A stretch of DNA of 64,000 nucleotides, from contig JBDRYB010000001.1 in assembly GCA_039803205.1 (NCBI GenBank), forward strand, positions 32,001 through 96,000, read 5' to 3'. Source of the DNA: a candidate division WOR-3 bacterium. Lineage in GTDB: Bacteria > Hydrothermota > Hydrothermia > JBDRYB01. A program made the position numbers and the translations under genes. Below are positions 18,474 to 34,465 of this stretch, piece by piece. Position 1 is the stretch's first letter; every line of letters begins with the position of its first letter. The notes below the pieces were generated by a model that worked only from the letters and a program-made list of their open reading frames with translations, was not told the origin of the DNA and searched no databases.

Positions 18474-19495
18474 GCGACAAACCAGTTCTCGCGGCCGCTT
18501 TTGAGACAACTCCCAGGTGCAACGCCAACTGTTTGTATTGTTATAATGTCTGGAAGGCTCATCCGGACTATCCAAGGGGGGAACCGGACGCGGAGGGTCT
18601 CCTCCGGGTCCTTGATGCCATCCTTAAGAGCGAGCGGGTGACCATCGTGAGCCTAACCGGCGGAGAGCCACTGCTTCTGGGCGATCTCATCCTTGAGATG
18701 GGCGCTATGGCGAGGCTTTCAGGAAAATCCGTGAACCTCGTCACCAACGGTTCTCTTATCAGCAAAGGCTTTGCCAAGAACCTCAAGAGGCTCAGCATAA
18801 GGCCCGTAGAGATAACCCTCCTATCAGCAAGGGAGGAGTTGCACGATTCCTTGCAAAGAGCGAGGACATTCCGGAGCGCAGTTAGCGCCATAAGGACAGT
18901 GGCTGATGTCGGCGGGGAAGCAATAGTTGGCATAGTCGGAACGAAAGCAAACATTCCCTTTCTCTCCGAGACCCTTGAATTCGCAAAGACCCTCGGAGCC
19001 AAGGGCGCCATGTTCACCAGGTTCAACCCCGGCGGCCAGGGGCTTAGGCACTGGCGGGAGCTCGGGCCTTCCAAGGAGGAACTCAGGTCAGCCATAAAAA
19101 CCCTTATGAAATTTGCCGACGAAAACCCAAACCTGACTATAACCTGCGGCGTTCCTATTCCCCCATGCGTTCTAGGTTTCACTGACTACGGAAGGGTAAA
19201 GATGGGTTATTGCAACGCTGGGGGCGATCTCATAGCCATAGATTGGCTCGGAAACCTCCGTCCGTGCAACCATTCCTCCCTTATAGTGGGGAACATACTC
19301 AAGGTGCCCCTTGATGAGCTTCTGGAATCAAAGCGGTTAAAGGATTTCATGCTCCCTGTGCCTAAGATGTGCGTCGGTTGCCAGTTCTACGATCTATGCA
19401 AGGGGGGTTGCCGGGCCGCGGCATTTGAGATGGCTTGGTGGCTCAGGAAGGAAAGGTCTGCTGGGTCCATCCGGTTTTCCGGACACACCATCTAG
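18470..19495 (+). CDS. Radical SAM/SPASM domain protein
   Basis: CNANCLYCY; SPASM cysteines CNAG...RPC...CVGCQFYDLCKGGC. TTG start overlaps the upstream TGA. Confidence 0.85.
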   Translation: MSDKPVLAAAFETTPRCNANCLYCYNVWKAHPDYPRGEPDAEGLLRVLDAILKSERVTIVSLTGGEPLLLGDLILEMGAMARLSGKSVNLVTNGSLISKGFAKNLKRLSIRPVEITLLSAREELHDSLQRARTFRSAVSAIRTVADVGGEAIVGIVGTKANIPFLSETLEFAKTLGAKGAMFTRFNPGGQGLRHWRELGPSKEELRSAIKTLMKFADENPNLTITCGVPIPPCVLGFTDYGRVKMGYCNAGGDLIAIDWLGNLRPCNHSSLIVGNILKVPLDELLESKRLKDFMLPVPKMCVGCQFYDLCKGGCRAAAFEMAWWLRKERSAGSIRFSGHTI

Positions 19496-19572
19496 GGAAG
19501 CGTAAAGACCTCCGCTAACCACGAGAAAATGATTTCGGGGAGGGACCCATCTGAGTTATAATTTGGGGCTAA

Positions 19573-19654
19573 GCGAGGGTGGCGGAAAGGCAGACGCGCC
19601 AGATTTAGGATCTGGTGGGCTAATCCCGTGCGGGTTCAAGTCCCGCCCCTCGCA
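19573..19654 (+). tRNA. tRNA-Leu(TAG)
   Basis: Acceptor GCGAGGG/CCCTCGC-A, anticodon arm CCAGA-TTTAGGA-TCTGG, long variable arm, GGTTCAAGTCC. Confidence 0.95.
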
Positions 19655-19691
19655 TATCCATTCCAGTTCAGAGAAACATTTTGGAATAAAA

Positions 19692-20648
19692 ATGAAGGTT
19701 GCTGTTGTCGGAGCGGCTGGCCTGGTTGGAAGGACCATGCTTCGCGTCCTTGAGAAGAGGGGCTTTCCGGTCTCGGAGCTGGCGGCTTATGACAAGCTAT
19801 CGGGAGAAAGTCTGCTCTTCCGCGGCAATAAGCACCTGTGCATCAGGTTAACTCCAACATCCGTCAGGGGTTTTGACCTCGCGCTTTTTTCGGCAGGTGC
19901 GGATGTCTCCCTGAAATACGCGCCCCTGTTTGCCAAAAAGGGCGCGCTAGTGGTTGACAATTCCTCCGCCTGGCGCATGCATCCCAAGGTTCCACTTGTC
20001 GTCCCAGAGGTGAACCCAGAGGCGCTCATGGATATTCCAATGGGCATCGTGGCCAATCCAAATTGTTCAACGATCCAGATGGTCGTGGCTCTCAAGCCCC
20101 TGGTTCGCTTCGGCATAAAGGAGGTCTTCGTGGCGACATATCAGGCGGTCTCAGGGGCTGGAAAGGACGGGATTGACGCGCTCATATCGGAAGAGAAGGG
20201 CAAGAGGTCGTCAAATTCCCCTCACCTCGGCCCAATTCACAGGAATGTCTTGCCCGGAATAGGAAACTTTGAGGAGGGTTTCTACGAGGAGGAGACGAAG
20301 CTCATCCGTGAGACAAAGAAAATAATGGGCCTTGATGTTCCCGTTCATCCGACCGCGGTGAGGGTTCCTGTGATAGCTGGCCACTCCGAGGCCGTTGCGG
20401 TAAGGCTAAAGAAGAAGGTAAGCCTTGAGGAAATAAAAGCTTCTATGGGAGAGCAGGAGGGCCTCGTCCTCAGCGATGGTTTTGTCACCCCGAAGGAGGC
20501 CGAGGGCAAGGATGAGGTCTTTGTCTCCAGGCTCAGATTTTCGCCTGATGATCCGAGGGTTCTCCTGATGTGGGTTGTCTCAGATAACCTTCTGAAGGGA
20601 GCCGCTCTCAACGCGGTTCAAATAGCAGAGAGGGCCCTATTGCGGTGA
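19692..20648 (+). CDS. asd: Aspartate-semialdehyde dehydrogenase
   Basis: VVGAAGLVG, VDNSSAWR, ANPNCSTIQ, YQAVSGAG, DNLLKGAALNAVQIAE. Confidence 0.95.
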   Translation: MKVAVVGAAGLVGRTMLRVLEKRGFPVSELAAYDKLSGESLLFRGNKHLCIRLTPTSVRGFDLALFSAGADVSLKYAPLFAKKGALVVDNSSAWRMHPKVPLVVPEVNPEALMDIPMGIVANPNCSTIQMVVALKPLVRFGIKEVFVATYQAVSGAGKDGIDALISEEKGKRSSNSPHLGPIHRNVLPGIGNFEEGFYEEETKLIRETKKIMGLDVPVHPTAVRVPVIAGHSEAVAVRLKKKVSLEEIKASMGEQEGLVLSDGFVTPKEAEGKDEVFVSRLRFSPDDPRVLLMWVVSDNLLKGAALNAVQIAERALLR

Positions 20649-22229
20649 AAGAGGAGCGTCCCCGAACAGCCTCTTCCTCAGCCTGTTATAGTATTGCCTG
20701 TATTCGTCAATGTGGCGGTCATAGGGGAATTCGGGAAGGAGCTCTCCTTTCGCCAGCTCGCGGGCCCGGGCGAGGAGTTCCTCTTTCTCGGCGGGATCCC
20801 GGGTCGCGTCAGCGAGCCTCATCAGGTTCTCAAGCTCGCCAAGGTCTGTCCAGACATCCTCAAGCTGGTAATAATCCCCCTTTTTGATGAGGAGATCAGG
20901 CCTACCTAAGTTCCGTCTGGCGACCACCATAGCTGTGTAGAGCAACTCCCTGGATCTTTCGTTGTATTTTCTTCTCGGCCATATCAGATAAAAAAGGTGA
21001 TCGTAGGGCAATCTGTGTTTTGGTGAAAGGAGCAGATAGACGAATGCTCTGGCTGATTTCTTGTTCCGCCACTCGCTCAAATGAACCTCTCTTCGGTCGA
21101 CAAATATCCTCATCTCACCGATCAAATGTGCCCTTATACCGGATTGTCTCCTCTGATCAACCCCATAGGTAAGAAGGGGATAAATTGCCTCAAGAAACGG
21201 GCCTAAAATGGGATCACGACTCATAGCCCGGTAAGAAGGGGCAAGGGGAACCAAGAATCTCATGGCCTCATGGAAGACCGTACCGCCGTGCTTCCATGCC
21301 AAAAACGCGGAGGAGAGACCTGTCACGAAAGCCTCTACTGGTTGATAAGCGTTAAGATAATCTCTGGCGGCCTTCAAAAGCTCATGAGGAAGGTCCGCTT
21401 TGTCCTCAGATAATAGGGCCTCTATCTCTCTTAGGGCCGCGAGCTCACCCAGTCCACCTTTTTTAGCAAAGTCCATGCACCTATCCACCATTTCCCTTGG
21501 AGGAGGCTCCAGACCAGCAAATCTAGCGATTTCAAGGGCTTTCGCACAAGGAAACGCTGAGTATGCTGAGCCTATTTCCAGATATCCCAGGGCTGACTTC
21601 GTGTATAACTTCACCGCTCCTCCTAGATCCCCTAGCATCCTGAGAGCAAAACCCTTGACCTCCAGCAAGGCAGAGAGATGGCGCTTATCCTTTTCCGTTT
21701 TGATCAAGGATCTGAGCATATCAAGAGCCCTTTCCGGCTTGCCAGTTATTATGCTCAGAAGGGCCAGCAGATACCTGGCTCTGGGACTCTTTGACGAGGT
21801 TAGCGTGGGAAGAACTCCTTTTATATCCATGTAAAGGGTGTCGTATTCGGCTCTGAAAAACTTCAGGGAAAGGAGGTTCACTTTGGCAAATGACCACAAC
21901 TCCCTATCCTCAGCGTGCTCAGCTATGTCCAGGGCCTTTAAATAACAGTTCTCAGCAACCTCCATCTCCCCTGTTTGTCTGTAAACTAGCCCAAGCATGC
22001 CATATATCCTTCCGGTCATCTCCGGTTCGCCGCGAACACGAGCGAGAAGCCTTCTCCCCTTTTTGATGGCTTCTGGAGCACGGGAACCCAGAACTGCGGC
22101 GCAGAAGTCCAAGAACGCAAAACCCAAAGGGTCCTCAGATTTCAGCTTTTCGACATAATTAGCAAAGGCTCCGGGGGAGCCTGTCTTCAGGATCTCTAGC
22201 CCTCTTTCAACCCTTTCTAAGAGCTTCAC
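20637..22229 (-). CDS. Transcriptional regulator 1: N-terminal TPR region, C-terminal OmpR-like wHTH plus short BTAD-like tail (SARP-like)
   Basis: IRAHLIGEMRIFVD...WRNKKSARAFVYLLL...LIWP...ARRNLG...VWTDLGELE...AKGELLPEFPYD. The GTG 22229 start aligns with the paralog and lies 6 nt after TATCAT. Confidence 0.75.
   Translation of the reverse strand: MKLLERVERGLEILKTGSPGAFANYVEKLKSEDPLGFAFLDFCAAVLGSRAPEAIKKGRRLLARVRGEPEMTGRIYGMLGLVYRQTGEMEVAENCYLKALDIAEHAEDRELWSFAKVNLLSLKFFRAEYDTLYMDIKGVLPTLTSSKSPRARYLLALLSIITGKPERALDMLRSLIKTEKDKRHLSALLEVKGFALRMLGDLGGAVKLYTKSALGYLEIGSAYSAFPCAKALEIARFAGLEPPPREMVDRCMDFAKKGGLGELAALREIEALLSEDKADLPHELLKAARDYLNAYQPVEAFVTGLSSAFLAWKHGGTVFHEAMRFLVPLAPSYRAMSRDPILGPFLEAIYPLLTYGVDQRRQSGIRAHLIGEMRIFVDRREVHLSEWRNKKSARAFVYLLLSPKHRLPYDHLFYLIWPRRKYNERSRELLYTAMVVARRNLGRPDLLIKKGDYYQLEDVWTDLGELENLMRLADATRDPAEKEELLARARELAKGELLPEFPYDRHIDEYRQYYNRLRKRLFGDAPLSPQ
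20662..20870. repeat. Copy 1 of a 209-nt near-identical direct repeat (3' end of regulator gene)
   Basis: Matches 25857-26065 with 6 mismatches by manual alignment. Confidence 0.9.
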
Positions 22230-22292
22230 CCCGATATGATAAAATTCAGAATGGAGCAAATTCAAGTCGCGCAAGATGATAATATCATTTTG

Positions 22293-22324
22293 TTTCGGAA
22301 CTTTTTCGGAGGATCGCTTATAAT
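22293..22324 (+). promoter_or_regulatory. Putative operator (TTTCGGA x2, 11-bp period) and -10 box of the cargo promoter
   Basis: TTTCGGA at 22293 and 22304; TATAAT at 22319-22324. Confidence 0.6.
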
Positions 22325-22352
22325 ATGGGCATGTTAAAAAGGAGTGAGCATC

Positions 22353-23879
22353 ATGACAGAAGCATACACGCTAATAGGCCTTTTGGTGTCCCAGGTCTCT
22401 TTTGCTAGATCCTATGGAGGGCCTGATACTGAGAGCGTTCGTGGAATAGTCCAAACAACCGATGGAGGCTTCATTGTTGCGGGAGAGACAAAGAGCTTTG
22501 GGGCAGGGAGCTATGATTTTATGGCCATGAGGCTTCTGAGCACGGGGGATCCCTTCTGGGTAAAGACTCTCGGAGGGACCGGTGACGACAGGGCCTTCTC
22601 AGTAGCTCTGGCTATTGACGGTGGATGCGTCATCGTAGGAGAAACAAAGAGCTATGGCGTAGGGGACTATGATGTTTTGGTTATGAAGCTTGGCCCTGCT
22701 GGGGGATTCCGGTGGGCAAAAACCTATGGAGGGTTATTGCGAGAAAGAGGCACCTGCATCAAGCCAACCAGCGATACGGGATACATCCTCGCGGGATGGA
22801 CGGTTAGCTCAGGCCAGGGGTCCGCGGATCTCCTCGTGATGAAAATGGATTCAGCGGGCAATCGCGTCTGGACCAGGACATTTGGAGGTGACACCTCTGA
22901 TTACGCGCATCAAGTGATACAGACCCAGGATGGAGGCTTCTTGGTTGCGGGAACGAGTAGGAGCTTTGGGGCAGGCGACTTTGATTTTCTCGTGCTCAAG
23001 CTCAACAGCTCTGGCACGCTGAGCTGGGCCAGAGCAATTGGTGGCCCGGGCATAGAAGACGCCAGGATCCTGAGCCAGACTACGGATAATGGCTACATAG
23101 TCGGTGGGTGGACGAACAGCTTTGGCAGTGGAGACTACGATGTTCTCCTTGTGAAGTTGAATTCATCCGGAGGTTTTCAGTGGGCAAAAACCTATGGGGG
23201 TGCCAGCCTTGATTGGGGGACATCCGGCATCCTCCTCCCGGACGGGGGTTTCCTCGTTGTAGGAGTCACTTTGACTTACGATCCCGAAGGCGATCTATTT
23301 CTTCTCAGGCTGGACCCGGCAGGGAATCCTGATTGGCTTAAGGTTCTCAAGGAGGAGGGAGATGGGGTAAGTGGCGCGACTACTGTGATACAAACTGGAG
23401 ATGGTGGTTTCGCGGTTGGAGGTTGGAAGGGTGACTCGTGGGATTTTCTGGTCATAAAGACCGACCAAGACGGAAACTATGACGAAGACTCCAATTGCAT
23501 GAAGCCCGACATCCTTACAAGCCTGACCATTATGCCCAATCTTGAAACTCTGACGCTCGGGGCAAGCTGGGTTCCTCTAGTATCCAACCCAAACCCATCC
23601 CAGAATACGCCCTCCTTGACGATGACAAACGTGACCTGTGAACCTGTTTATGAGGAAGTTGGGGAATCTCTGGTTGAGCCGAATGACATAGTCTGCTATC
23701 CGATTCCAAGGGCCATTGCGTTTATTTCTTCCTGTGCCGCGGAGATAAGTATCTACTCATCTGACGGGTGCGTGGCCTATTCGGGCACTCTAGAGAAGGG
23801 CAAAAATATGATACCCATTGACCGAGGCATTTACTTTTGGCAGGCAGGAGCTTATAAAGGAAAAGCCGTTGTGAGGTAA
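22353..23879 (+). CDS. Secreted beta-propeller-like repeat protein with C-terminal sorting-like domain
   Basis: About 7 repeats of QT.DGG.IVAG.T.SFGAG.YD.LV.KL...G...WAKTYGG; C-terminus IYSSDG..AYSG...GIYFW...GKAVVR; AAGGAG SD. Confidence 0.75.
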   Translation: MTEAYTLIGLLVSQVSFARSYGGPDTESVRGIVQTTDGGFIVAGETKSFGAGSYDFMAMRLLSTGDPFWVKTLGGTGDDRAFSVALAIDGGCVIVGETKSYGVGDYDVLVMKLGPAGGFRWAKTYGGLLRERGTCIKPTSDTGYILAGWTVSSGQGSADLLVMKMDSAGNRVWTRTFGGDTSDYAHQVIQTQDGGFLVAGTSRSFGAGDFDFLVLKLNSSGTLSWARAIGGPGIEDARILSQTTDNGYIVGGWTNSFGSGDYDVLLVKLNSSGGFQWAKTYGGASLDWGTSGILLPDGGFLVVGVTLTYDPEGDLFLLRLDPAGNPDWLKVLKEEGDGVSGATTVIQTGDGGFAVGGWKGDSWDFLVIKTDQDGNYDEDSNCMKPDILTSLTIMPNLETLTLGASWVPLVSNPNPSQNTPSLTMTNVTCEPVYEEVGESLVEPNDIVCYPIPRAIAFISSCAAEISIYSSDGCVAYSGTLEKGKNMIPIDRGIYFWQAGAYKGKAVVR

Positions 23880-23897
23880 CCCACTTGTAGTCACTAG

Positions 23898-23945
23898 CCC
23901 CGGCCGGTAAAATCATTGCACCTCCCGTCCCGGCCGGGGGTTTTT
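23898..23945 (+). terminator. GC hairpin with 22-nt GCACCTCCC-containing loop and U-tract (copy 1)
   Basis: CCCCGGCCGG-taaaatcattgcacctcccgtc-CCGGCCGGGG-gttttt. Confidence 0.75.
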
Positions 23946-23965
23946 ATTTCCCAGATGAGAAGCCC

Positions 23966-25795
23966 TTATTGCCTATCCCAACCCAAACCCCACATTCCCC
24001 TGGTCCAAGCCCTGCCGTTCCTGCAGGGGGTTCCTGCTGGATAGTTGTCCTTGCCTGATAGGTCAAGGAATATGCCAACGCCTCCAGCGTCCCGGGCCCT
24101 GTTCGCATCGCCGAGGCCTATGTCCTCCCTGGCGGAATATGTGTCATCCCCATCAGAATCCACGAAGATCCCAACGGAATTCGTCAAACCTATACCGAGG
24201 CCGCCGGAGACCTGGTAGTTGTCGTTGCCGCGCTTGTCAATTAGCCAGCCAACAGCGAGGTCGTGGCCCTCGCCCTGGGATGGGCCGTATCTTGAATAAT
24301 AGTGATCCGAGCCGGAGTAATCCCCGAGAAGTCCGACCGAGAGGTGGATTCCGGAGCCCTGCGCGTATTGCACAGCGGAATAGAAGTCGTCGCCAGACAG
24401 ATCGAGGAGAATGCCTGCCGAATACCAGTATGAACAGCCCTGCGCGTATACCTCGCCCTGATACAGGTCGTTGCCCTCGCGGTCCAAAAGAACTGAGATC
24501 CCCCCAGAAGCGCGTGGTCTAATTCCGATTGAATAGCCTTGCGCGAACGCCCTGTAGTTGTGTTCAAGGAGGGGTTTGTGCAGGTATTCTCCTCCAGCGT
24601 AATAGACATCATCTCCCCCCACCTCGTCCAAGATAGCGCAGCCCTTGACCGATGAGAAGGCCTGAGCGCAAGAGAATGCCCTCATAACATCATCCCCTCC
24701 GCCCTCGTGCATGTAGGAGACCCCGAACATGGCCGCGGATTGTGCGAAAAAGCCGGAGTAATAGAGATCGTCTCCGGCCTTATCCGAGAGAAAACCCGCG
24801 CCGAAAAGCCCCATACCCATTGTGTAATGAGGGGCCCGATACAGGTCATCCCCTGAGAGGTCAACCAGGGCACCGTAGCCCATGAGGCCAGCGCCAAGGG
24901 AGACGAAATCTTCAGCCAGATAAGCGTCATTGCCGCAAAGATCAATCACGGCCGAGAGGGGCCTCCCCAGAAACCCAACCGATCCCCCAGGCCTCCCGTA
25001 GTAGGCGTCTGAGCCACCCTTGTCCAGTATAAGGTGATATAGGGCTGTGGTCTCGGCCGGATGAACATCATCCCCTTCTCCTTTGACCAAAACCCTCCAC
25101 TGGCCAGCGGAATAGCTGCCCTCAGGAATTCCCTGTGAGAACATCGTGATCTCCTCTACCCCCATTGAGAACGCTAGGGCTCCGAGGGCTAGCTCACGCC
25201 AATCAACCAGAGCCGCCAACTCCAGTATCCTTGAAGAGTCATCGCACCAGGCTGTGTCCACCGGAAACCCAAATTCCCTGAGCAGACAGCCCCGCAGAGT
25301 GTCCAGAAGGGTATCACCCTCGTCCGCCCAAAGGGAAAGGGAGTAGTAGAGGAGGGTATCAATCTGGGGCCTGCTCAGCCGCGAAAAGGCTTTTTGCCTG
25401 TGAGCATCAGCCTCGTCCCAGGAGGCTCTGAGGTATGCGAGGCCAGCTTCCCATCCCTTTTTGCCCGCCATGGCCTTTTCAAATCTCTTTCGCATCTCGT
25501 TCGTATCCTTGGGAGAGAGCCCGACATCGAGAAGGGAAAAGCCGAGGAACATGGTGGATGTCGGATTACCGGTTGATCTTGCTATTTCGGCCCTGCAGGA
25601 GTCAGCAAAATGAGGCACATCCATGGGCTTCGCCATCAATCTGTCAACCGTCTTGAGCCTGAATGAGTCGCGGTCGGCCCAGTCCTTGTTGTATGAGAGG
25701 TCCTCTGGGGCCAGATTAATGTAAGCTAGGGCCTGGATGATGGCACTTGTTTCGGCTGTATCAAGGAGAAACTGCGAGAGAAGCAAAAGCGTCAT
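23966..25795 (-). CDS. Secreted hypothetical protein with many D..G.D.Y glycine-rich repeats
   Basis: About 10 repeats like LLDLSGDDFY / IDLCGNDAY / LDREGNDLY. Confidence 0.7.
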   Translation of the reverse strand: MTLLLLSQFLLDTAETSAIIQALAYINLAPEDLSYNKDWADRDSFRLKTVDRLMAKPMDVPHFADSCRAEIARSTGNPTSTMFLGFSLLDVGLSPKDTNEMRKRFEKAMAGKKGWEAGLAYLRASWDEADAHRQKAFSRLSRPQIDTLLYYSLSLWADEGDTLLDTLRGCLLREFGFPVDTAWCDDSSRILELAALVDWRELALGALAFSMGVEEITMFSQGIPEGSYSAGQWRVLVKGEGDDVHPAETTALYHLILDKGGSDAYYGRPGGSVGFLGRPLSAVIDLCGNDAYLAEDFVSLGAGLMGYGALVDLSGDDLYRAPHYTMGMGLFGAGFLSDKAGDDLYYSGFFAQSAAMFGVSYMHEGGGDDVMRAFSCAQAFSSVKGCAILDEVGGDDVYYAGGEYLHKPLLEHNYRAFAQGYSIGIRPRASGGISVLLDREGNDLYQGEVYAQGCSYWYSAGILLDLSGDDFYSAVQYAQGSGIHLSVGLLGDYSGSDHYYSRYGPSQGEGHDLAVGWLIDKRGNDNYQVSGGLGIGLTNSVGIFVDSDGDDTYSAREDIGLGDANRARDAGGVGIFLDLSGKDNYPAGTPCRNGRAWTRGMWGLGWDRQ

Positions 25796-25840
25796 GTTCA
25801 AAGGTTAAACCAGAAGGAGGCTGGAAGGCAAGGACGGCTT

Positions 25841-27421
25841 TCAGGTCTGATTATCTCCGAACAGCCTCTTCCTCAGCCTGTTATAGTATTGCCTGTATTC
25901 GTCAATGTGGCTGTCATAGGGGAATTCGGGAAGGAGCTCGCCTTTCGCCAGCTCGCGGGCCCGGGCGAGGAGTTCCTCTTTCTCGGCGGGATCGCGGGTC
26001 GCGTCAGCGAGCCTCATGAGGTTCTCAATCTCTCCAAGGTCTGTCCAGACATCCTCAAGCTGGTAGAAGTCGCCTCGTTTGGTGAGCAATTGTGGTTTGC
26101 CCAGATTCCTGCGGATAGTGTAAATAGCAGTATAAAGCCACTTCCTCGTCCTGGCGTCGTATCTCCTCCTGGGCCACAGCAGATACGCAAGGTGATCCTG
26201 GGATATTCTGTGTTTAGGCGAGAGCAAGAGGTAGAGCAGAGCCATCAACGCCCTTGAGTTTCGCCACGCCCTAAGGGAAACCTCTTCCCCATCCACCTGG
26301 AGCATGAACTCACCAAGCAGGCTCGCCCTCACGCCCTGCACTGTCCTTTCGCCCTTCCCATATCTAAGCAGGGGTTCCACGCTGATCATGAATTCTCCTA
26401 GCAAAGGGTCGCGCCTGAACCCTGGGTGAAGAGGCAAGAGGGGCGCGAGTAACTTGAGGATCTTCGGGAAAACCGGGTGGTCGTCTTGCCATGCAAAAAG
26501 GGCTGCTGTGAGGCCTGTAAGGATGACCTCTATGTTCTGGTTGACCCTATAGTATCCGAGTGCGGCGTCAAAAAGGAGCTCGGTGGATCTTTTGGGGTCC
26601 TCACACAGGAGTGCTTCGATCTCCTGGGCCCCTGCCTTCTCTCCTGACGAACCCCTCCTGGCAAGTGCCAGACATCTCCTTACAAGCTTCTTGGGAGGAG
26701 GCTCCAGCCCAGCGAGTCGCGTGAGCTCAAGAGCCTTGGCACAAGGGAAGGTCGCGTAGGCAGAACCGAATTCAATGGCGATGTTCATGGACTCCACATA
26801 TAGATCCCTCGCCTCCTGTAGTTTCCCCATCATCCTGCTGGCCAATCCCTTCATCTCTGTAGCACCCAAAAGGACTATACTGCCGCCCTCGCTGATGATG
26901 GAATCCAAGAGTTTCAATGCCTTCTCTGGGTTTCCACGGATTATCTCAAGTGCGGCCACTAGGTACTTGGCACCCCCGGTGATCTCTGGACTCCTCACCC
27001 GCGCGAGGAATCCCCTTGCTTCGTTGTAAAGCGGTTCGTATTCAGCTCTAAAGAATCTGTTGGTCAGAAGTCTCAATCTTGCAATGGAGGCCAGGGTCAG
27101 GTCTCCCGCCTGTCCGGCCATATCCTCTGCTCTAACAAAGTATCCATCGGCTGCATCCAGTTCTCCTATTAGTTCGTAAGCGGTGCCAAGGCAGTTGAAA
27201 AGAAAACTCGCAAGCCTGGGCTTGCCCGAAACTCTTGAAATGAGCCTGGTTCCTTTCCTTATGGCGCTAGAATTGTGATTGTAGACCGCCAGGCGAACCT
27301 CCAGTAGTTCCGCGGCCAGAAGGTCTTCAAGCTTAAGGCAACGAATGTATCTCATTAAGTCATCCAACTGGCCTGACTTCATCATTGTTAGGCCGCGTTC
27401 AATCCTATCCAAAGTATCCAC
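25841..27421 (-). CDS. Transcriptional regulator 2, paralog of 20637-22229
   Basis: Same architecture (FFRAEY, FPCAKALE..R.AGLEPPP, YLLLSPKHR) and a near-identical C-terminal 70 aa; GTG start 6 nt after TATACT. Confidence 0.75.
   Translation of the reverse strand: MDTLDRIERGLTMMKSGQLDDLMRYIRCLKLEDLLAAELLEVRLAVYNHNSSAIRKGTRLISRVSGKPRLASFLFNCLGTAYELIGELDAADGYFVRAEDMAGQAGDLTLASIARLRLLTNRFFRAEYEPLYNEARGFLARVRSPEITGGAKYLVAALEIIRGNPEKALKLLDSIISEGGSIVLLGATEMKGLASRMMGKLQEARDLYVESMNIAIEFGSAYATFPCAKALELTRLAGLEPPPKKLVRRCLALARRGSSGEKAGAQEIEALLCEDPKRSTELLFDAALGYYRVNQNIEVILTGLTAALFAWQDDHPVFPKILKLLAPLLPLHPGFRRDPLLGEFMISVEPLLRYGKGERTVQGVRASLLGEFMLQVDGEEVSLRAWRNSRALMALLYLLLSPKHRISQDHLAYLLWPRRRYDARTRKWLYTAIYTIRRNLGKPQLLTKRGDFYQLEDVWTDLGEIENLMRLADATRDPAEKEELLARARELAKGELLPEFPYDSHIDEYRQYYNRLRKRLFGDNQT
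25857..26065. repeat. Copy 2 of the 209-nt near-identical repeat
   Basis: See 20662-20870. Confidence 0.9.
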
Positions 27422-27476
27422 GTCTAGAGTATAAACCAATTGGGGAATCCACTGCTATATGCGCATTTGTCCTAAC

Positions 27477-27511
27477 TTGCTAGAGTTTTGCTAGAAAACC
27501 CTACTTATAAT
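27477..27511 (+). promoter_or_regulatory. Putative operator (TTGCTAGA x2, 11-bp period) and -10 box of the cargo promoter
   Basis: TTGCTAGA at 27477 and 27488; TATAAT at 27506-27511. Confidence 0.6.
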
Positions 27512-27547
27512 TTAGGGCCTTATGAAAAAGAGACACGGAGGTGTCAG

Positions 27548-29152
27548 ATGATAGGGATGATAGGAATCTTTATCGGTGCAACCACGGTCAACTGGCCCTG
27601 CTGGGGCGGAGACCCGGAGCGCCAGGGATTGCAGACCACTCCAGGAGCGTTCATAAGCGCTCCTTCAACAAAGTGGAAAGTCCAGACCTACCAACTCGTC
27701 AGGTGGGAATTCTCAGCGATAGCCGATGTTGACGGCGACGGCCAGATGGAGGTCCTCGTAGGATGCTACAACGGATACCCCGGCTTCTTTTGCATCAATG
27801 GCTCCACGGGCACAGTTGAGTGGTCGGTTAACACATACCTAAGCGGAGTGCTTGCGGGTCCGGCCGTAGCTGATGTGGACAACGATGGCCAGAATGAGGT
27901 GATCTTCGCTAGCAGTGGTTCTGGTGCGGGAGACGATACGGTCTATTGTTACAGCGGAATGGGCTCTCGGAAGTGGGCCTTTTGTAATCCTTCTTCTGGG
28001 AGATACTGGTCCTCGCCGGCCATCGTTGATCTAGATGGAGACGGCAATATGGAGGTGTTAATAGGCAATTCTGACGGGGGGACAGACACTCTGAGCAGAA
28101 GAAGCCTCTATTGCCTGAATGGCTCTAATGGCACCCAGAAGTGGTCATACATTTCAGGCAACTCGGTGGACTGTGCATCCCCATCTGCGGCTGATGTTGA
28201 TGGCGATGGCAAGCTAGAAGTGCTCTTCGTGAACTGGGCTAATAGGCTCTTCTGCATCAGCGATACCGTGGTGGCCGGCAACGACACATGCAGGGTGGAG
28301 TGGACATACCCATTCGGTGCTAGCGGTGGGATACAGTGCACCCCGGTTCTTCTCGATCTTGATGGCGACGGTAAGATGGAGATAGTTACTGCCAACGCGA
28401 ATTTTAACTCTAATAACCTCTACTGCTTGAACACAGCCACCATCTCAGGCAACGATACAGCGGTTGTCAAGTGGACCTTCTCTGCTGGAAGATATATATA
28501 CTCCTCTCTATCCGCCGCAGACGCTGACGGAAATGGTATCATAGATGTTTTCGTTGGTAGTTGGGACTCCCTATTATACTGCCTGGACGGAGCAACTGGC
28601 GCCAAGAAGTGGCAATTCGGAAAGGTGCCGGAGATACTCTATACACCTATATCAGTGATGGACGCGGACGGCGCTCATCCCAGCGGCGACCCTGGGCTTG
28701 AGGTTCTTCTTACAGCCAAGGACACCCTATACTGTGTGAACGCGGAGGATGGCTCTCTGCTTTGGAAAGCGAGGGTGGCGCCCCGTGTCAACACACCGTT
28801 CTCAGGGGACATAGACGGAGATGGGGCTTCTGAGATAATAGTCGGTGCAGACAGCGCGTTGTACGCGCTTGATACAGCAAGTCCGGTTTACGAGGGCATA
28901 GGTGACAATAACAACAACGGAGACCTCGTCCTGTTCCGGTTCACAAACAACCGCTTTTATCTTTATCTGCCAGAAGAGGATGGGATCTCAATCGCTCTTT
29001 ACGACGCTGGAGGGCGATTCGTTAAAAGTATCTTTGAAGGCCATCTGAGCTCTGGTAGCCACAACTTTGAGCTGAGTTCGGAGGCCAAGGGGGTCTACAT
29101 CGCTGTTCTCAGGCACAACGAGGGCATAAAGACCCTGAAGATAGCGAGGTAA
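27548..29152 (+). CDS. Secreted FG-GAP/PQQ-like beta-propeller protein with T9SS type A-like CTD
   Basis: Repeats of SP..aDvDgDG..Ev..g.....lyClng..G..kW; CTD LYDAGGR...GVYIA...KIAR; GGAGG SD. Confidence 0.8.
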   Translation: MIGMIGIFIGATTVNWPCWGGDPERQGLQTTPGAFISAPSTKWKVQTYQLVRWEFSAIADVDGDGQMEVLVGCYNGYPGFFCINGSTGTVEWSVNTYLSGVLAGPAVADVDNDGQNEVIFASSGSGAGDDTVYCYSGMGSRKWAFCNPSSGRYWSSPAIVDLDGDGNMEVLIGNSDGGTDTLSRRSLYCLNGSNGTQKWSYISGNSVDCASPSAADVDGDGKLEVLFVNWANRLFCISDTVVAGNDTCRVEWTYPFGASGGIQCTPVLLDLDGDGKMEIVTANANFNSNNLYCLNTATISGNDTAVVKWTFSAGRYIYSSLSAADADGNGIIDVFVGSWDSLLYCLDGATGAKKWQFGKVPEILYTPISVMDADGAHPSGDPGLEVLLTAKDTLYCVNAEDGSLLWKARVAPRVNTPFSGDIDGDGASEIIVGADSALYALDTASPVYEGIGDNNNNGDLVLFRFTNNRFYLYLPEEDGISIALYDAGGRFVKSIFEGHLSSGSHNFELSSEAKGVYIAVLRHNEGIKTLKIAR

Positions 29153-29159
29153 AAACATG

Positions 29160-29213
29160 ACCGGCCGCGGAAACTTCGCACCCCCGGCACCTCCCGGATG
29201 GACCGCGGCCGGT
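29160..29213 (+). repeat. Intercistronic GC hairpin with two GCACC(C/T)CC motifs in the loop
   Basis: ACCGGCCGCGG-aaacttcgcacccccggcacctcccggatgga-CCGCGGCCGGT. Confidence 0.65.
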
Positions 29214-29241
29214 CCGGTTTTGTGAAAACAAGGAGATTACA

Positions 29242-30750
29242 ATGTCTGACATGTATATCATAGGAATGCTGGCCTCCCAAATCCTTGGGACCTGGCCTAT
29301 GTGGGGCTATAACCCAGCACACTGGGCTGTCCAACCGGTGCCTGGCACTCATACAACTGCTCCGGTTATGAAGTGGAGTATCTCAACTGGTGATCAGGTT
29401 CAGTGGCTCTTTTCTGCCACAGGTGATGTTGATCGTGATGGCAGAAATGAGGTTCTGGCTGGCTCTTTTTCTGGAACTTTTTACTGCTTGGACGGAACCA
29501 CCGGGGCAACCAAATGGAGCTTTAACGTCGAATCCGAATCACCGATAGAAACCTGCCCGGCTCTTGCGGACATGGCTGGAAATGGTTCAGTAGAGGTAGT
29601 CTTCGCCACTTGGGGCGGAGAAGTCTATTGCCTTGATGGGACGGACGGGAGCGTAAAATGGCAATACGTAACCACCTACTACGATCAATACCACCACGGC
29701 CCGGTTGTCGTTGATTGCGATGCTGATGGTGATCTGGATGTTGTTATCGGAAACATATATGGAAGTCTATACTGCTTCGATGGTGAGACGGGAACGCTGA
29801 TCTGGAACGCTAACATGAGCTCCACAGAAAACTCTTCTCCTGCCGCCGGTGATATAGATGGAGATGGCAAGATAGAGATAGTTATAGGAGGCTCATCGGG
29901 GACCTATTCTTTGAACGGTTCAAACGGAGCCTTGGAGTGGTTGGCTTCAACGGGTATCTGTGCTAATTCATCTCCAGGAATAGCTGACTGCGATGGAGAT
30001 GGTCTCGCTGAGGTGATTATAGGTTCTGAGGATTATAATATCTACTGTCTTGATGGTCAAACCGGAGCCGAGAAGTGGCGTTATTCTACCGGAAACAGGG
30101 TTTGGTCTTCTCCTGTGATCCTTGATGCTGACGGAGACGGGCTTCTTGAGATAATAATAGGGAGCTTTGACGGCTACGCTTACTGTCTGAGCGGGGAATC
30201 CGGAACCCTCCAGTGGAGAACGCAGGTCGGCGACATCCGCGTGGGCATCCCTGCTGGGGATGTGGACGGCGATAACAGATATGAGGTGATCATAGGGAAT
30301 ACTAGTGGATACACATGCCTCAACGGTGAGGACGGCTCTGTTCTTTGGAGATCAGCACCATCTAGCGGCGGTAGGTCCGTTTACCTCGCGGATGTTGACA
30401 TGGACGGGTGTGTTGAAATTGTGGGTGGGTCAACCGGTTATGATATATATGTGCTTGATGATCCCGGAAACTCGTCGGGTTGTATGAGTATGGGAAAGGA
30501 TGAAGAGGGGTATGGCCCAGATTCTCCTGAATTCAAGCCCATGGGTAAAAGTTTATATCTTTTTCTCCCCGAGGATGAGCAGGTTTCTCTGAGCCTATAC
30601 GATGCCTCAGGTAAGCTCGTTCAAAAGGTATATGATGGGGTCCTGAGGCAGGGAAGTCACACCTTCAGCCCCAACATAAACGCTAAAGGTATCTACTTCG
30701 CGGTTATGAGGTATCAGAAAGGGATGAAAACCCTGAAGATTGTGCGATAA
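29242..30750 (+). CDS. Secreted FG-GAP/PQQ-like beta-propeller protein with T9SS type A-like CTD (paralog of the upstream gene)
   Basis: Same repeat type; CTD LYDASGK...GIYFA...KIVR; AAGGAG SD. Confidence 0.8.
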   Translation: MSDMYIIGMLASQILGTWPMWGYNPAHWAVQPVPGTHTTAPVMKWSISTGDQVQWLFSATGDVDRDGRNEVLAGSFSGTFYCLDGTTGATKWSFNVESESPIETCPALADMAGNGSVEVVFATWGGEVYCLDGTDGSVKWQYVTTYYDQYHHGPVVVDCDADGDLDVVIGNIYGSLYCFDGETGTLIWNANMSSTENSSPAAGDIDGDGKIEIVIGGSSGTYSLNGSNGALEWLASTGICANSSPGIADCDGDGLAEVIIGSEDYNIYCLDGQTGAEKWRYSTGNRVWSSPVILDADGDGLLEIIIGSFDGYAYCLSGESGTLQWRTQVGDIRVGIPAGDVDGDNRYEVIIGNTSGYTCLNGEDGSVLWRSAPSSGGRSVYLADVDMDGCVEIVGGSTGYDIYVLDDPGNSSGCMSMGKDEEGYGPDSPEFKPMGKSLYLFLPEDEQVSLSLYDASGKLVQKVYDGVLRQGSHTFSPNINAKGIYFAVMRYQKGMKTLKIVR

Positions 30751-30761
30751 TTCGCCAAATT

Positions 30762-30814
30762 AAAAAGCCCCGGCCGGTAAAATCATCGCACCTCCCGTTC
30801 CGGCCGGGGTTTTT
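30762..30814. terminator. Bidirectional terminator-like hairpin with GCACCTCCC loop (copy 2)
   Basis: aaaaag-CCCCGGCCGG-taaaatcatcgcacctcccgtt-CCGGCCGGGG-ttttt; 2 loop differences from the 23898 copy. Confidence 0.8.
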
Positions 30815-31769
30815 ACACCTCCTCAGCCCAGGCCTCCCAGCACCAACTGTTCTCCGCGAACCAGGAAACGGTCTCCGAGAGCGCCTGATCAAAACTGAGC
30901 AAGGGCTCCCAGCCGAGCGCCTTTATCTTCCCCGAATCCATAAAATACCGGACATCGTGCCCAGGCCTATCCTCTACATGCTGAATGAGAGCATGGCTTT
31001 TCCCTAGGAGATCAAGTATCCTCTCCGCAACCGAGATGTTTTCTTCCTCGTGACCAGAGCCTATGTTGTAGACCTCGCCAGGGGATCCCTTCTCAAGAAC
31101 AAGTAAAATAGCCCTCGCTATATCATCTGCCCAGAGCCACTCCCTCCGCTGTTTCCCCGTGCCGTAGACCGGCAGGGGTTTGTCCAGGATGGCCCTCAAG
31201 GTCATCCTCGGGATGAACTTCTCCGGATGCTGGAAGGGACCAAGGCCGTTGCACGGCCGGACGACTATTGCCTCGATGCCGTAAGTTTTCTGGTATGCCC
31301 TGACGAACGCCTCAGCCCCGACCTTGCTCGCTGAGTATGGCGAGGAGGGCAAAAGGGGCCAGTCCTCCCTTGCCGAGCCTTTCTCAACCGGGCCATAGAC
31401 CTCATCCGTTGAGATGTGAAGGAAAAGCCCCTTCTTTTCCCACGCGAGCCTTGCGGCCTCCAAGAGGGTCTGGGTTCCTAGGACATTCGTCCTTATAAAG
31501 CCTCCGGGCCTCGCTATTGACTTATCAACATGGGTCTCAGCGGCAAAGTGCACGATAGCATCGTGATCAACGAGGAGGCCAACGGCAAGGTTTTGGTCCA
31601 GGATGTCGCCGTGGACGAAGTGAAAATGGACACCCTTGAGCCTCCTCATATCCCCAGCGTATGTGAGCTTGTCCAAGACGGTTATCTCCCAACCAGGTCG
31701 CTCGCGCGCGGCAAGTCGCACGAAAGCTGAACCGAGAAAACCAGCGCCGCCAGTGACTATAACGCGCAC
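30813..31769 (-). CDS. rfbB: dTDP-glucose 4,6-dehydratase
   Basis: VTGGAGFLGS, DKLTYAG, HFAAETHVD, HISTDEVYG, PYSASK, DRPGHDVRY. Confidence 0.92.
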   Translation of the reverse strand: MRVIVTGGAGFLGSAFVRLAARERPGWEITVLDKLTYAGDMRRLKGVHFHFVHGDILDQNLAVGLLVDHDAIVHFAAETHVDKSIARPGGFIRTNVLGTQTLLEAARLAWEKKGLFLHISTDEVYGPVEKGSAREDWPLLPSSPYSASKVGAEAFVRAYQKTYGIEAIVVRPCNGLGPFQHPEKFIPRMTLRAILDKPLPVYGTGKQRREWLWADDIARAILLVLEKGSPGEVYNIGSGHEEENISVAERILDLLGKSHALIQHVEDRPGHDVRYFMDSGKIKALGWEPLLSFDQALSETVSWFAENSWCWEAWAEEV

Positions 31770-31814
31770 CCTGATATTATAATGTCTTCCGGATTATCAG
31801 TGCTGGTTTTGGAG

Positions 31815-32237
31815 CTATCTTTTTCTAGGGGGTAGCCTCCTTGAGGCTCGGAGCTGGTTCTTTATGATCCGGCCTACCAGGAGTCCAACCCCAACCGGAA
31901 AACCCCTCCACCGGATTATCACTTGGCCATCCGGCCAGGGGAAATCCCCCTCTATGTTCTGGCCGTAAAGAAAGCCCTTGGCCTCGTTCTCCTCCAGATC
32001 AAGGGCGCGCAGGGTCGCACTTTTCCCTATGGCCATCGCCCCCTCGGCGGTGAGCTTCCAGCCATCTGAGGTTCTCTGTGCTAGCTTTATCCCAGTTCTC
32101 AGGATAGGCCCTTTGATCTCGTGGGCTTCCGGCGTTGAAATCCAGGCCTCCTTGCCCTGGACCCTTATCGCCAATCCCTCCCAGAATCCCCCGGGAATTC
32201 CGAATCTCTCTGAGAGGGGTCTCGTTATCTCTTTCAA
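31815..32237 (-). CDS. PUA-like protein resembling the RsmF/NIP7 C-terminal domain
   Basis: RTGIKLA....WKLT.EGA..IG..AT...LDL...EA..FL.G...GQVIIR..G.PVG.G......KNQL. Confidence 0.6.
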   Translation of the reverse strand: MKEITRPLSERFGIPGGFWEGLAIRVQGKEAWISTPEAHEIKGPILRTGIKLAQRTSDGWKLTAEGAMAIGKSATLRALDLEENEAKGFLYGQNIEGDFPWPDGQVIIRWRGFPVGVGLLVGRIIKNQLRASRRLPPRKR

Positions 32238-32449
32238 TATGCTACCGAACCACCGCTCTGCCTATAGGGCCGTATCCATCGGCTGTTACTTCCTCGGCTT
32301 GCAGGGAGAGTGAAGTTACCCTTTAGCACATATCTCGCATACTGGGCAAATGGGGTCGCGCGGACATCAGCCTCCTTATGATCGGTCCATCCGAGGCCAG
32401 TTTTCATTCCCGTGTCCGTAAGAGGGATCAGAGCAAAAAGATATACCAT
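32234..32449 (-). CDS. Small hypothetical ORF (71 aa)
   Basis: GGAGG SD before ATG 32449; its stop overlaps the TTG of the next gene. Confidence 0.3.
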   Translation of the reverse strand: MVYLFALIPLTDTGMKTGLGWTDHKEADVRATPFAQYARYVLKGNFTLPASRGSNSRWIRPYRQSGGSVAY

Positions 32450-32677
32450 CAAAAACCTCCCGTCTGTCCAAGGGTAATTAATTATGGAGCTTTGGAAATA
32501 GGCCACGCAAATTGTTGTATCCCGTAAGGAAGGGTTTCGGATTCACGAAGGACCCAAACAGCCGTGGGGCCGGGAACAAATTCTGGAAACCGGAGTCAAA
32601 TGGAGAAAGGGGTTGATCCTTGACAGAGGATATACTTTATACTTTGGGTCTAAACCTAAACCGAAAGGAGGAACAGG

Positions 32678-34465
32678 ATGTTGTATAACATAGCTTTGGC
32701 CGTGGCCGTGGCTTACCCATCGGCTTTCGGGCCATCAGGATACTACGATGTGATATCGCCCTCAGTGATGGAAAGGTTTGAGAACCGGGCCTCTCTGACG
32801 GTCGGCGGCTACTTCGGGTACATAGGAGGAACCTTCTGGGAGTATGAGAACTACGGAGGCGCTTCTGAGGAAGAGGTCATTTACCTCGGGAGGGCTGGCG
32901 TCTGCTACACTCCGTCGGACTGGTTTGAGATATTCTCCTTGCTCAGAGCTATTGAGTGGTATCCTGGCGCTGGATCGGATGGCATAGGAGGCTTCTCCGA
33001 CGCGGATCTCGGAATGAAGATAAGGCTCTTCAAGGCAGGCATGCTCACGACCGGAATAATGGGCGTTCTCACCTTGCCCACGGGCGAAACCCAGACATCT
33101 CCAATAGTTGTAGGCGGGAACAACCTCGGGACCTTCGTGATAACCGACAACGAACTGATATACGGTGGTTCTGTCTTGGCTGAGTTGGATTTCGGCAAGA
33201 TCCACGATCTCACTGCTTTCCGCATAGCCCTGAACGCTGGATATTACACCGGAGGCGGATATGTCCCTGCTGGTGGAAAAGATACCATGGCTGATCCCCT
33301 GAGGCTCGGGGGGGCATTCATCCTCTCATCTCGCTACTTGGACTACATCGTGGAGGCCAAGTATTACGGAAGAACGAGCATGAAGGATAAGGCCTTCGTG
33401 ACGCCAGCGCTCAGACTCAGGCCTTTTGAGGGAATTGGGCTTTCAGTCCTGGGCGGCGTCAACCTCAACACCACATACTATGTGCCCGAGAATCACTACG
33501 AGTGGAACTACGATGTGGTAATGGGCATAGGCCTCATCACCCCTCTCTTCAAGACAGAGGAGCTGGCGCCTGGCGGCGGCGTGATGGGCAAGGTGTTTGA
33601 TTCAAGGACAAAGGAACCCCTGAAAGCCAAGGTAAAGGTCGTTGAGGCAAACATGACCCTGGAGTCCGACACCAACGGCATCGTCCGGATAAAGCACCTG
33701 CCTGAGGGCGTCTACACCCTCGTGGCTGAGAAGGATGGATACCGCAAGACCTACTCCCTGGTCAACATCAAGCGCAGGTCCCAGAACATGGTTGAGCTTC
33801 CCATGGACCCCGCGGCCGTCCTGGTTAAGGGAATAGTGATAGACTCCCTGACATCCGGAGTGGTTGAGGGAGCGAAGGTGGCTTTTGCTGGACCGGAGTC
33901 CAAGGAGGTGACATCCGGTGCCGCGGAGTTTGAGGTCTCGCTCAAGCCCGGAGCCTATTGGGTCTCTGCTTCAAAGGAGGGCTACTTCACGAAATACATG
34001 GATGTTGCCCTTTACGAGCCGAAGTTCGTGAAGATAGTCATTGGAAGGCCCATGATCCGCGAGCCAAAGCTCATAGAGACCGTCAACTTCGCGACCGCCT
34101 CCGCGGTCCTCTCGTCCAGCGACAAGGCCAAGCTGGACAAGGTTGGCAAGATGCTTCAGGAGGACCCAGCGGCCATAATCGTGATAACGGGCCACACGGA
34201 CAGGCACGGCTCAGTGTTCTACAACGAGCTCCTCTCAGAGAAGCGCGCCAAGGCTGTCAAGGATTACCTGGCTTCAAAGTATGACATACCTGATGAAAGG
34301 ATGAGGATTGACTGGTATTCCGAGTTCCAAAAGGCCGGGAGCTCTGACTCCGGAAACCGCAGGGTTGAGATATACCTGCTCAAGCCCATAGAGGCTGAAA
34401 AGGCCAAACCCGAGGAGAAACCAAAAGAGGGCGGCAAGGAGCAACCCAAGGAAGGCGGCAAGTAG
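32678..34465 (+). CDS. OmpA-family outer membrane protein with carboxypeptidase-regulatory-like domains
   Basis: N-terminal beta-barrel-like region, two G.V.DS.T..P/V Ig-like domains, VNFATAS, GHTD..GS..YN..LSEKRAKAV, NRRVEI; AGGAGG SD. Confidence 0.88.
   Translation: MLYNIALAVAVAYPSAFGPSGYYDVISPSVMERFENRASLTVGGYFGYIGGTFWEYENYGGASEEEVIYLGRAGVCYTPSDWFEIFSLLRAIEWYPGAGSDGIGGFSDADLGMKIRLFKAGMLTTGIMGVLTLPTGETQTSPIVVGGNNLGTFVITDNELIYGGSVLAELDFGKIHDLTAFRIALNAGYYTGGGYVPAGGKDTMADPLRLGGAFILSSRYLDYIVEAKYYGRTSMKDKAFVTPALRLRPFEGIGLSVLGGVNLNTTYYVPENHYEWNYDVVMGIGLITPLFKTEELAPGGGVMGKVFDSRTKEPLKAKVKVVEANMTLESDTNGIVRIKHLPEGVYTLVAEKDGYRKTYSLVNIKRRSQNMVELPMDPAAVLVKGIVIDSLTSGVVEGAKVAFAGPESKEVTSGAAEFEVSLKPGAYWVSASKEGYFTKYMDVALYEPKFVKIVIGRPMIREPKLIETVNFATASAVLSSSDKAKLDKVGKMLQEDPAAIIVITGHTDRHGSVFYNELLSEKRAKAVKDYLASKYDIPDERMRIDWYSEFQKAGSSDSGNRRVEIYLLKPIEAEKAKPEEKPKEGGKEQPKEGGK

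Follow-up and report, generated by a model that had tools for sequence, protein, structure and literature searches.

Scattered regulator–cargo cassettes with conserved ends, probably exchanged by homologous recombination, in a candidate division WOR-3 bacterium

How can two neighbouring chromosomal units be nearly identical at their outer ends and widely divergent in between? The question is raised by a stretch of 64,000 nucleotides (nt) from a candidate division WOR-3 bacterium (contig JBDRYB010000001.1, positions 32,001 to 96,000; hereafter the window), which belongs to a genome of 2.32 Mb and 96% completeness (G000, where the window is G000:C1:32001-96000). Two cassettes lie within it, each made up of a regulator gene, a divergent promoter region and one or two genes for predicted exported propeller proteins (cargo) that end in a hairpin. 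From left to right, the forward-strand asd converges on regulator 1 (reverse), which stands back to back with cargo 1 and its hairpin (forward); the gene for a 611-amino-acid (aa) protein and regulator 2 follow on the reverse strand, the latter back to back with cargo 2 and its hairpin and cargo 3 and its hairpin, which meet the reverse-strand rfbB. The first-pass annotation of this DNA had described both cassettes with their parts in the same order and orientation, and every part was recovered. We consider it probable, though well short of certain, that these are two members of a genus-wide set of scattered cassettes, each with an activator that joins TPR repeats to a SARP-like DNA-binding module and with its own 11-base-pair (bp) repeat, whose contents are exchanged, likely by homologous recombination between the regulator tail and the hairpin. 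The observations behind this reading are the number of copies, their linkage to cargo, the common position of the repeats, a hairpin family, chromosomal sites that are empty or differently filled, and the homogenisation of regulator tails.

Regulator 1 (20637–22229, reverse strand; ~530 aa) and regulator 2 (25841–27421, reverse strand; 526 aa) share one predicted architecture, a TPR solenoid followed by an OmpR-type winged helix and a truncated BTAD, with the domains assigned from homologues. The likely starts are GTG codons at 22229 and 27421, neither preceded by a Shine-Dalgarno sequence; that of regulator 1, whose longest possible start is at 22274, was chosen from the family alignment and the position of the promoter. 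A blastp search identified a family of 19 full-length paralogous regulators in G000, 34–51% identical to regulator 1 and distributed over 10 contigs, and a distant regulator of 621 aa, counted here as the 20th; a second distant member (629 aa) faces a cargo run, and regulator fragments lie at C3:70314 and C29:20470. The dispersed family that had been proposed from two copies is therefore real, and the alternative that only two copies exist fails. Two congeners, G001 and G002, contain 16 and 5 regulator matches, some of which are pieces at contig ends; in one of them, a frameshifted regulator beside an mreB-like gene (G001, L039:968-2519) retains an intact operator and cargo. No full-length match was found in 28 genomes of the class, the regulator alignment, with up to 7 candidates scored in each genome, retrieved nothing at E 1e-20 from 198 other genomes of the phylum, and a related-locus search of genome contigs gave no match with either a protein or an alignment query; 46 proteins reached E 1e-30 among 1.84 billion representatives in a homologue search. 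As judged from these comparisons, the regulator family is restricted to the genus.

The domain assignment draws on several sources. TPR matches were found in regulator 1 itself, and the AlphaFold model contains a confident TPR solenoid over residues 1–350 and a C-terminal part of low confidence. The close homologue P0017 matches Trans_reg_C above the cut-off, with weak matches in P0008 and P0023; BTAD in P0017, which is of the 520-aa type, spans only positions 1–66 of 146, full BTAD is restricted to relatives of 580–630 aa, and an Atlas search likewise points toward BTAD proteins. Foldseek matches were generic TPR proteins that include Rap and NprR, with LGN ranked first, and sequence and fold searches of the PDB gave nothing beyond such generic TPR matches.

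The genes that these regulators face encode propeller proteins with tails resembling those of the type IX secretion system (T9SS). Cargo 1 (22353–23879, forward strand; ~508 aa) is a propeller of DUF5122/delta-60-like repeats with a T9SS-like tail, which does not match TIGR04183 and was called by an in-genome profile only, cargo 1 being itself a seed of that profile. Cargo 2 (27548–29152, forward strand; ~534 aa) and cargo 3 (29242–30750, forward strand; 502 aa) are FG-GAP/PQQ-type propellers with T9SS type A tails (TIGR04183 at 26.1 bits, cut-off 23, and 28.2 bits, respectively), so that the cargo does differ between the copies, as had been noticed. The nearest paralogue of cargo 1 within G000 is 43% identical, and cargo 3 is 74% identical to a paralogue 300 kb away. 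By the in-genome profile, 241 of the 2183 called genes of G000 (~11%) carry a T9SS-like tail, and the translocon protein SprA (TIGR04189) is above the cut-off in all five genomes searched. The hexamer GGAGGT was seen in the start region of 93/210 and 10/26 cargo genes and of 148/1526 other genes, with starts picked automatically.

Linkage between regulator and cargo is a property of the family. The divergent upstream neighbour is a tailed gene for 17 of the 20 regulators, against 62 of 1480 other genes; in the three exceptions a cargo-like gene is cut by the contig end, another cassette follows, or a cargo run lies downstream. The suggestion that regulator and cargo might not be linked elsewhere is thus answered. 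The proposed module of one regulator and one surface protein holds as the pairing of a regulator with a cargo run (17/20) and not as a one-to-one rule, since regulator-headed runs contain 1–7 cargo genes and some operators recur at remote promoters. The reach of the cassette model is limited by the 194 of 236 cargo genes that lie outside regulator-headed runs, which hold only 42.

Each divergent promoter in the window contains the 11-bp-period direct repeat that the annotation had reported. In cassette 1 a predicted σ70-type promoter of the regulator (22236–22265, reverse strand; −35 at 22260–22265, −10 at 22236–22241) is followed by predicted operator 1 (22293–22312, forward strand), two copies of TTTCGGA that occupy the place of the −35 element, and by the −10 box of the cargo 1 promoter (TATAAT, 22319–22324, forward strand). 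In cassette 2 a −10-like box (27428–27433, reverse strand) lies 6 nt before the GTG of regulator 2, predicted operator 2 (27477–27496, forward strand) comprises two copies of TTGCTAGA with the same period, and the −10 box of the promoter for cargos 2 and 3 (TATAAT) is at 27506–27511 (forward strand). The repeat units start at 22293/22304 and 27477/27488 and end 8–10 nt 5′ of TATAAT. Regulator genes of the family mostly begin 6–7 nt after a −10-like box with weak Shine-Dalgarno pairing, so their transcripts are likely leaderless; by eye, a promoter layout like that of regulator 1 precedes most of the 19 paralogues. No small open reading frame was found in the 48–142-nt spacers of most cassettes.

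Across the family, a direct repeat of period 11 precedes the first cargo gene and ends 7–10 nt before a TATAAT-like box. Eleven of 17 regulator-headed cargo genes have this repeat at 8/9 or better and 13 of 17 at 7/9, and the controls at 8/9 gave 0/17 at periods 9, 10, 12 and 13, 4/157 for other cargo-run heads and 2/1524 for other genes. Three of the four misses have a truncated first gene or a wrong start and show the repeat when this is taken into account; the fourth belongs to the distant regulator. Of the four repeat-bearing heads among the other cargo runs, three share the repeat with a remote regulator (at C16, at C3 and the cargo-less regulator at C22), which suggests action in trans; the remaining one sits directly behind a regulator. 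The repeat differs from regulator to regulator, and orthologous regulators in the congeners retain the same repeat, in keeping with the proposal that every cassette has its own operator. In a shift-tolerant test on 23 regulators, the recognition helix and the operator covaried (r = 0.249, p = 0.0006); the top 4 of 73 windows fall at the recognition helix, and the TPR part gave r = −0.035. Two loci show operators in other settings: at G000:C3:57921-58251 the start of a cargo gene is fused to its last codons with operator and hairpin kept, an interior deletion, and at G000:C22:25116-29969 a cassette immediately follows the operator of another regulator, one with no cargo, whose repeat recurs before the remote cargo gene C2:123469.

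The left conserved end is the regulator tail, which encodes the half-BTAD. The tail of regulator 1 (20659–20867, reverse strand) and its partner in regulator 2 (25854–26062, reverse strand) are identical at 202 of 209 bases, and the rest of the two regulators share 44% amino-acid identity, which bears out the near-identical 3′ ends and divergent remainder first noticed. The identity begins just behind the winged helix, a few codons past the predicted recognition helix. Where the two proteins have the same residue, the codon is also the same in 61 of 69 cases in the tail and in 75 of 190 in the body, where change is saturated. The tail thus records recent sequence exchange and not protein constraint alone; of the other paralogue pairs (171 in all), none is above 0.71 for the tail or 0.47 for the body. 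Near-identical tails are limited to the pair in the window, and other tails match at 65–84%. A comparison of domain phylogenies had been suggested as a test for incongruence. In FastTree phylogenies the body tree is nearly a star and many tails group by genome, clearly in G001, where identity of tails at four-fold sites is 0.49 within the genome against 0.37 between G000 and G001 (bodies 0.30–0.37); the grouping is weak in G000 and poorly supported.

The right conserved end is a hairpin with a GC stem, an open loop and a T run. Hairpin 1 (23896–23945, forward strand; loop with GCACCTCCCG at 23918–23927) and hairpin 3 (30762–30814, forward strand; T run, z = −5.27) close the two cassettes and match at 94% over 49 nt (23896–23944 and 30766–30814), close to the identity that had been reported; overlooked were an internal hairpin 2 between cargo 2 and cargo 3 (29157–29216, forward strand; z = −3.58) and the loop motif CACCTCCCG that all three share. 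A profile search gave 19 matches, all directly 3′ of a cargo gene and on its strand, and a motif-and-stem test was positive for 27/240 cargo genes, 0/20 regulators and 7/1746 other genes, those seven with mismatched motifs. In 39 aligned copies two-sided changes occur at 10 of 12 pairs and 93.5% of cells pair, more than in all 500 shuffles and the slid controls, a result that is not a probability because the copies are related. By eye the conserved letters of alignment A4 sit in the loop, where ACCTC is invariant; CACCTCC equals the 16S tail (the anti-Shine-Dalgarno) of the genome.

A loose hairpin pattern run on 31 genomes exceeded its reversed control in the genus and stayed near the control level in most others, and a covariance model was used in its place. 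The three genomes of the genus yield 31, 15 and 9 matches to this model at E < 1e-6, and 28 other genomes yield none (at most 150 candidates scored per genome). Of the 31 matches in G000, 18 belong to 13 of the 17 regulator-headed runs and 9 to operator-bearing runs, 2 lie behind the distant regulator and 2 at a contig end. Against Rfam, with E values up to 1, the interval 19000–32500 matched only a tRNA and, by chance, one other family; the hairpin matched none. The likely role of the hairpin is to terminate or stabilise transcripts at their 3′ end. Pairing of its loop with the ribosome-binding site of its own or the next cargo gene was considered and rejected, as no preference was seen (mean ranks 0.49, n = 26, and 0.545, n = 16, some automatic starts being wrong). 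G001 has gene-free hairpin doublets at three places, and two hairpins stand behind an argF that has no cargo tail (L138:7001-7042 and L143:1417-1455), likely remnants of lost cargo.

In the congeners, the sites of the two cassettes are empty or differently filled. Site A, the position of cassette 1 between asd (19692–20648, forward strand) and the 611-aa gene (23966–25801, reverse strand), is empty in G001 and G002, where asd and the 611-aa gene are immediate neighbours; of 27 loci in other genera, none had asd or a regulator within 1.5 kb of the 611-aa homologue. Site B, the position of cassette 2 between the 611-aa gene and rfbB (dTDP-glucose 4,6-dehydratase; 30813–31769, reverse strand), holds in both congeners a regulator behind the 611-aa gene and cargo with the family hairpin against rfbB, on separate contigs. 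Among the three genomes, its regulators are 54/42/43% identical and its rfbB-side cargos 31/38/32%, against 82–89% for the flanks and 66–76% for true orthologous regulators; in G002 the site B regulator faces a gene that lacks a cargo tail. Both congeners also lack a second cassette, the one at C22; the place beside argF and a 226-aa gene has different fillings in five sequences, and a further eight genes have a regulator, cargo or hairpin as neighbour in a relative and not in G000 (one flank seen each). The content of a given site thus differs between species. Another locus, G001:C202, has a copy of the rfbB-site right end, with ~90% identity across the final ~150 nt and with ~17 nt of rfbB; this copy precedes a cargo remnant and a hairpin doublet. 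The proposed spread and swapping by recombination between conserved ends therefore stands as regards the empty site A and the swapped contents of fixed sites; the route through the ends is what we infer from them. Elsewhere, a decayed regulator tail beside a cargo run with its operator kept (G000:C3:70314-70466) corresponds to a whole regulator in G001, and in a metagenome pattern scan four of nine loci (L139, L140, L145 and L146) were dropped as high-GC chance matches.

The cassettes abut genes unrelated to them, as had been stated: the last codons of regulator 1 overlap the 3′ end of asd by 12 nt, and hairpin 3 touches the stop codon of rfbB, which its T run overlaps. Both asd and rfbB are flanks outside the cassettes, and the 611-aa gene separates the cassettes and belongs to neither; its protein has no Pfam or NCBIfam match, contains DxxGxDxY-like repeats, has matches in 52 of 64 genomes of the class and is ~900 aa long in some families. 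Immediately 5′ of asd is a tRNA gene (19573–19654, forward strand), which the longest asd reading frame (from 19563) crosses, so that 19692 is the likely start. To the right, 32678–34465 (forward strand) encodes a 595-aa outer-membrane-like protein with CarboxypepD_reg and OmpA domains, possibly a component of the secretion machinery.

Variation between co-occurring strains, which had been recommended for study, was sought in five hot-spring DNA runs that contain the stretch, four of them from one study; no RNA run among the runs listed contains it. The comparison uses runs X3 and X4, leaving out X1, which may be the source, and X5, which has 7% of the words and short pieces only. In X3 and X4 the flanks lie on contigs that are 98.5–100% alike at depth 6–15, and the interiors are in pieces at depth ~2.5–5.5, a depth that is not a copy number. 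Contigs with the 611-aa gene (29 differences in X3, 24 in X4) cross hairpin 1 and continue into 270 and 426 other letters, of which the 30 shown resemble a cargo stop region; none of the 241 cargo ends of G000 matches this alternative end exactly. A further contig in X4 links the end of cargo 1 to the same hairpin variant, which places the switch at the foot of the hairpin. Two X3 contigs, not placed at a site, follow the regulator tail and depart at 26072 and 26074 into sequence absent from G000. Hairpin 1 is thus joined to different upstream sequence in both runs, as read from contig ends only, and the content of a site likely differs between co-occurring strains as well.

We propose the following mechanism. 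The TPR and SARP-like regulator would activate the divergent, likely T9SS-secreted propeller genes through its own repeat; by analogy with SARP activators (PMC10972967), two protomers bound to the tandem heptamers, which stand in for a −35 box, would recruit RNA polymerase, and the TPR solenoid may gate activation on a cytoplasmic ligand. As the conserved ends enclose recognition helix, promoter and cargo, one crossover within the tail together with one at the hairpin would move sensor, helix, operator and cargo as one matched unit, to any site already holding such ends. Crossovers between hairpins alone would replace, add or delete single cargo genes.

Several observations weigh against this reading. 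Neither regulator in the window itself matches Trans_reg_C or BTAD, and AlphaFold confidence is low in the C-terminal 170 residues (block means mostly 32–66). The significant covariation of helix and operator came at a second, shift-tolerant attempt to which six regulators had been added; an earlier fixed-register test was not significant (r = 0.086, p = 0.21; 17 regulators, some with mis-picked operators). The tail signal in G000 is weak outside the window pair (0.435 within against 0.412 between genomes), supports in the tail tree are low, and the tail is conserved as a protein too. Since G000 is the most distant of the three genomes, a single loss could account for the empty site A in both G001 and G002; gene order is often broken among the three genomes away from the cassettes too, and G001 is in 390 contigs and may mix strains. 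The strain evidence consists of 30 loose letters taken from contigs of two runs in one study. Finally, the genes that border the cassettes (the 611-aa gene and rfbB) differ between strains at 1.3–1.5%, against 0–0.8% further out (few contigs), which fits allelic replacement through the flanks.

The last point leads to the most serious alternative, to which we give a minority share of belief: ordinary paralogue expansion combined with allelic replacement through flanking core genes, in which protein or RNA constraint and occasional local gene conversion keep tails and hairpins alike without driving any movement. Raised divergence of bordering genes is what replacement islands display (PMC4033161), and the between-strain data are accounted for equally well by exchange through the flanks. 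Near-identical tails in the neighbouring pair only, the tail as the most conserved part of the protein, and some regulators that are stable orthologues across the three genomes all agree with it. Allelic exchange alone, however, makes no new sites, copies no rfbB end to another locus, and yields neither the twin of cargo 3 300 kb away (74%) nor a grouping of tails by genome; at site A, moreover, the switch between strains falls at the hairpin foot and not within a flanking gene. Allelic replacement probably acts as well, alongside the homologous recombination at the ends that we infer.

A more elaborate version of exchange between ends seems doubtful to us: that the cassettes form a recombinase-free shuffling library of ~20 orthogonal sensor–operator pairs fixed to their cargo and copied between sites through two homology handles, of which the right one is an RNA that damps other cargo messages, so that few propellers are displayed at once. 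In that version, damping of cargo translation by the anti-Shine-Dalgarno loop would draw on GGAGGT, which is ~4 times commoner in cargo genes than in others.

That the hairpin is instead an attC-like single-strand recombination site, with cargo cassettes moved by a dedicated recombinase encoded elsewhere, is very improbable. It would suit the position of all 31 strong model matches at cargo runs, the geneless doublets, the strain switch at the hairpin and the five full-length tyrosine recombinases of G000. The invariant letters, however, sit in the loop and equal the 16S tail, and the sense-strand T run of terminal copies points to a role as RNA; chimeric right ends reach ~100 nt or more into the coding region of the cargo tail, as homology-driven exchange would; and none of the six recombinase matches checked lies within 4 kb of a regulator, two having a cargo gene nearby, in a search that did not cover transposases, reverse transcriptases or serine recombinases. 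A single local duplication, which would explain why both ends are most alike between these neighbours, is scarcely credible as the full account and was rejected on copy number and linkage, given 19 copies on 10 contigs, interiors as distant as any two paralogues and the different repeat types of cargo 1 and cargos 2–3, although such an event may have seeded site A, with the interior then replaced or the ends converted.

On the preferred reading of exchange between tail and hairpin, the unit unites SARP-type activation, replacement islands and conserved-end gene conversion, a combination not found in print. New here are the empty sites, the different fillings of individual sites, and the strain junction at a hairpin; a literature search, beyond whose reach most subscription papers lay, found no published description of such a cassette. 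A cassette that moves would carry sensor, helix and operator along with the exported protein and so stay under its own control. With ~25 natural helix–operator pairs, the family lends itself to deciphering how OmpR/SARP winged helices recognise DNA, and it may yield a set of orthogonal activators of hot-spring origin. The cassettes also provide a testable case of how an uncultured lineage with T9SS-like tails on ~11% of its genes varies and regulates part of its surface.

Among known systems, the surface families msp2 of Anaplasma, vlsE of Borrelia and hop/bab of Helicobacter have conserved ends and variable middles and are varied by gene conversion. The cassettes share with them like ends around a divergent interior and homogenisation within a genome, but the unit here is two divergent genes with their promoter, and no single expression site with silent donors was seen. 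RRNPP sensors (Rap, NprR, Rgg) are likewise laid out in divergent genes and have a TPR solenoid of similar size (TM-score by target 0.54–0.61 to Rap and NprR chains, a generic fold match), but here a different DNA-binding domain stands at the opposite end and no small peptide gene was found. Integron cassette arrays differ in that no tyrosine integrase lies beside the present cassettes among the six matches checked. Cuckoo RNAs of Alphaproteobacteria (RSs0680/ar14; PMC4615179) consist of 2–4 adjacent hairpins with CCUCCUCCC loops; they too have variable stems and a conserved anti-Shine-Dalgarno-like loop and are co-transcribed behind a gene, whereas the element here is a single hairpin with one large loop containing CACCUCCCG, is tied to the stop codons of one gene class and has no Rfam match.

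Close in behaviour are the replacement flexible genomic islands, at which strains carry different surface-related genes at one position and bordering genes have raised divergence (Lopez-Perez et al. 2014, PMC4033161). Position-fixed variation of surface genes and the absence of a border integrase are common to both, and bordering divergence may be raised here too; the present units are only 3–5 kb long, occupy many sites, bring their own regulator and operator, and have paralogous ends that would permit exchange between sites. In its proposed mode of activation the cassette resembles the SARP activators, whose operators are two direct heptamers, spaced at an 11-bp period, that cover the −35 region in the target promoter (PMC10972967). 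ActII-ORF4, DnrI, RedD and CcaR share with the present regulators such heptamers and, as far as predicted, an OmpR-type winged helix followed by a BTAD region, but the DNA-binding module is here C-terminal, behind a 350-residue TPR solenoid, and not N-terminal, BTAD is reduced to about its first half, and ~20 paralogues face different repeats in front of secreted propeller proteins and not antibiotic clusters. The cassette would thus work like a SARP switch and like a replacement island, and its regulator falls outside the SARP family on domain order and on the length of BTAD.

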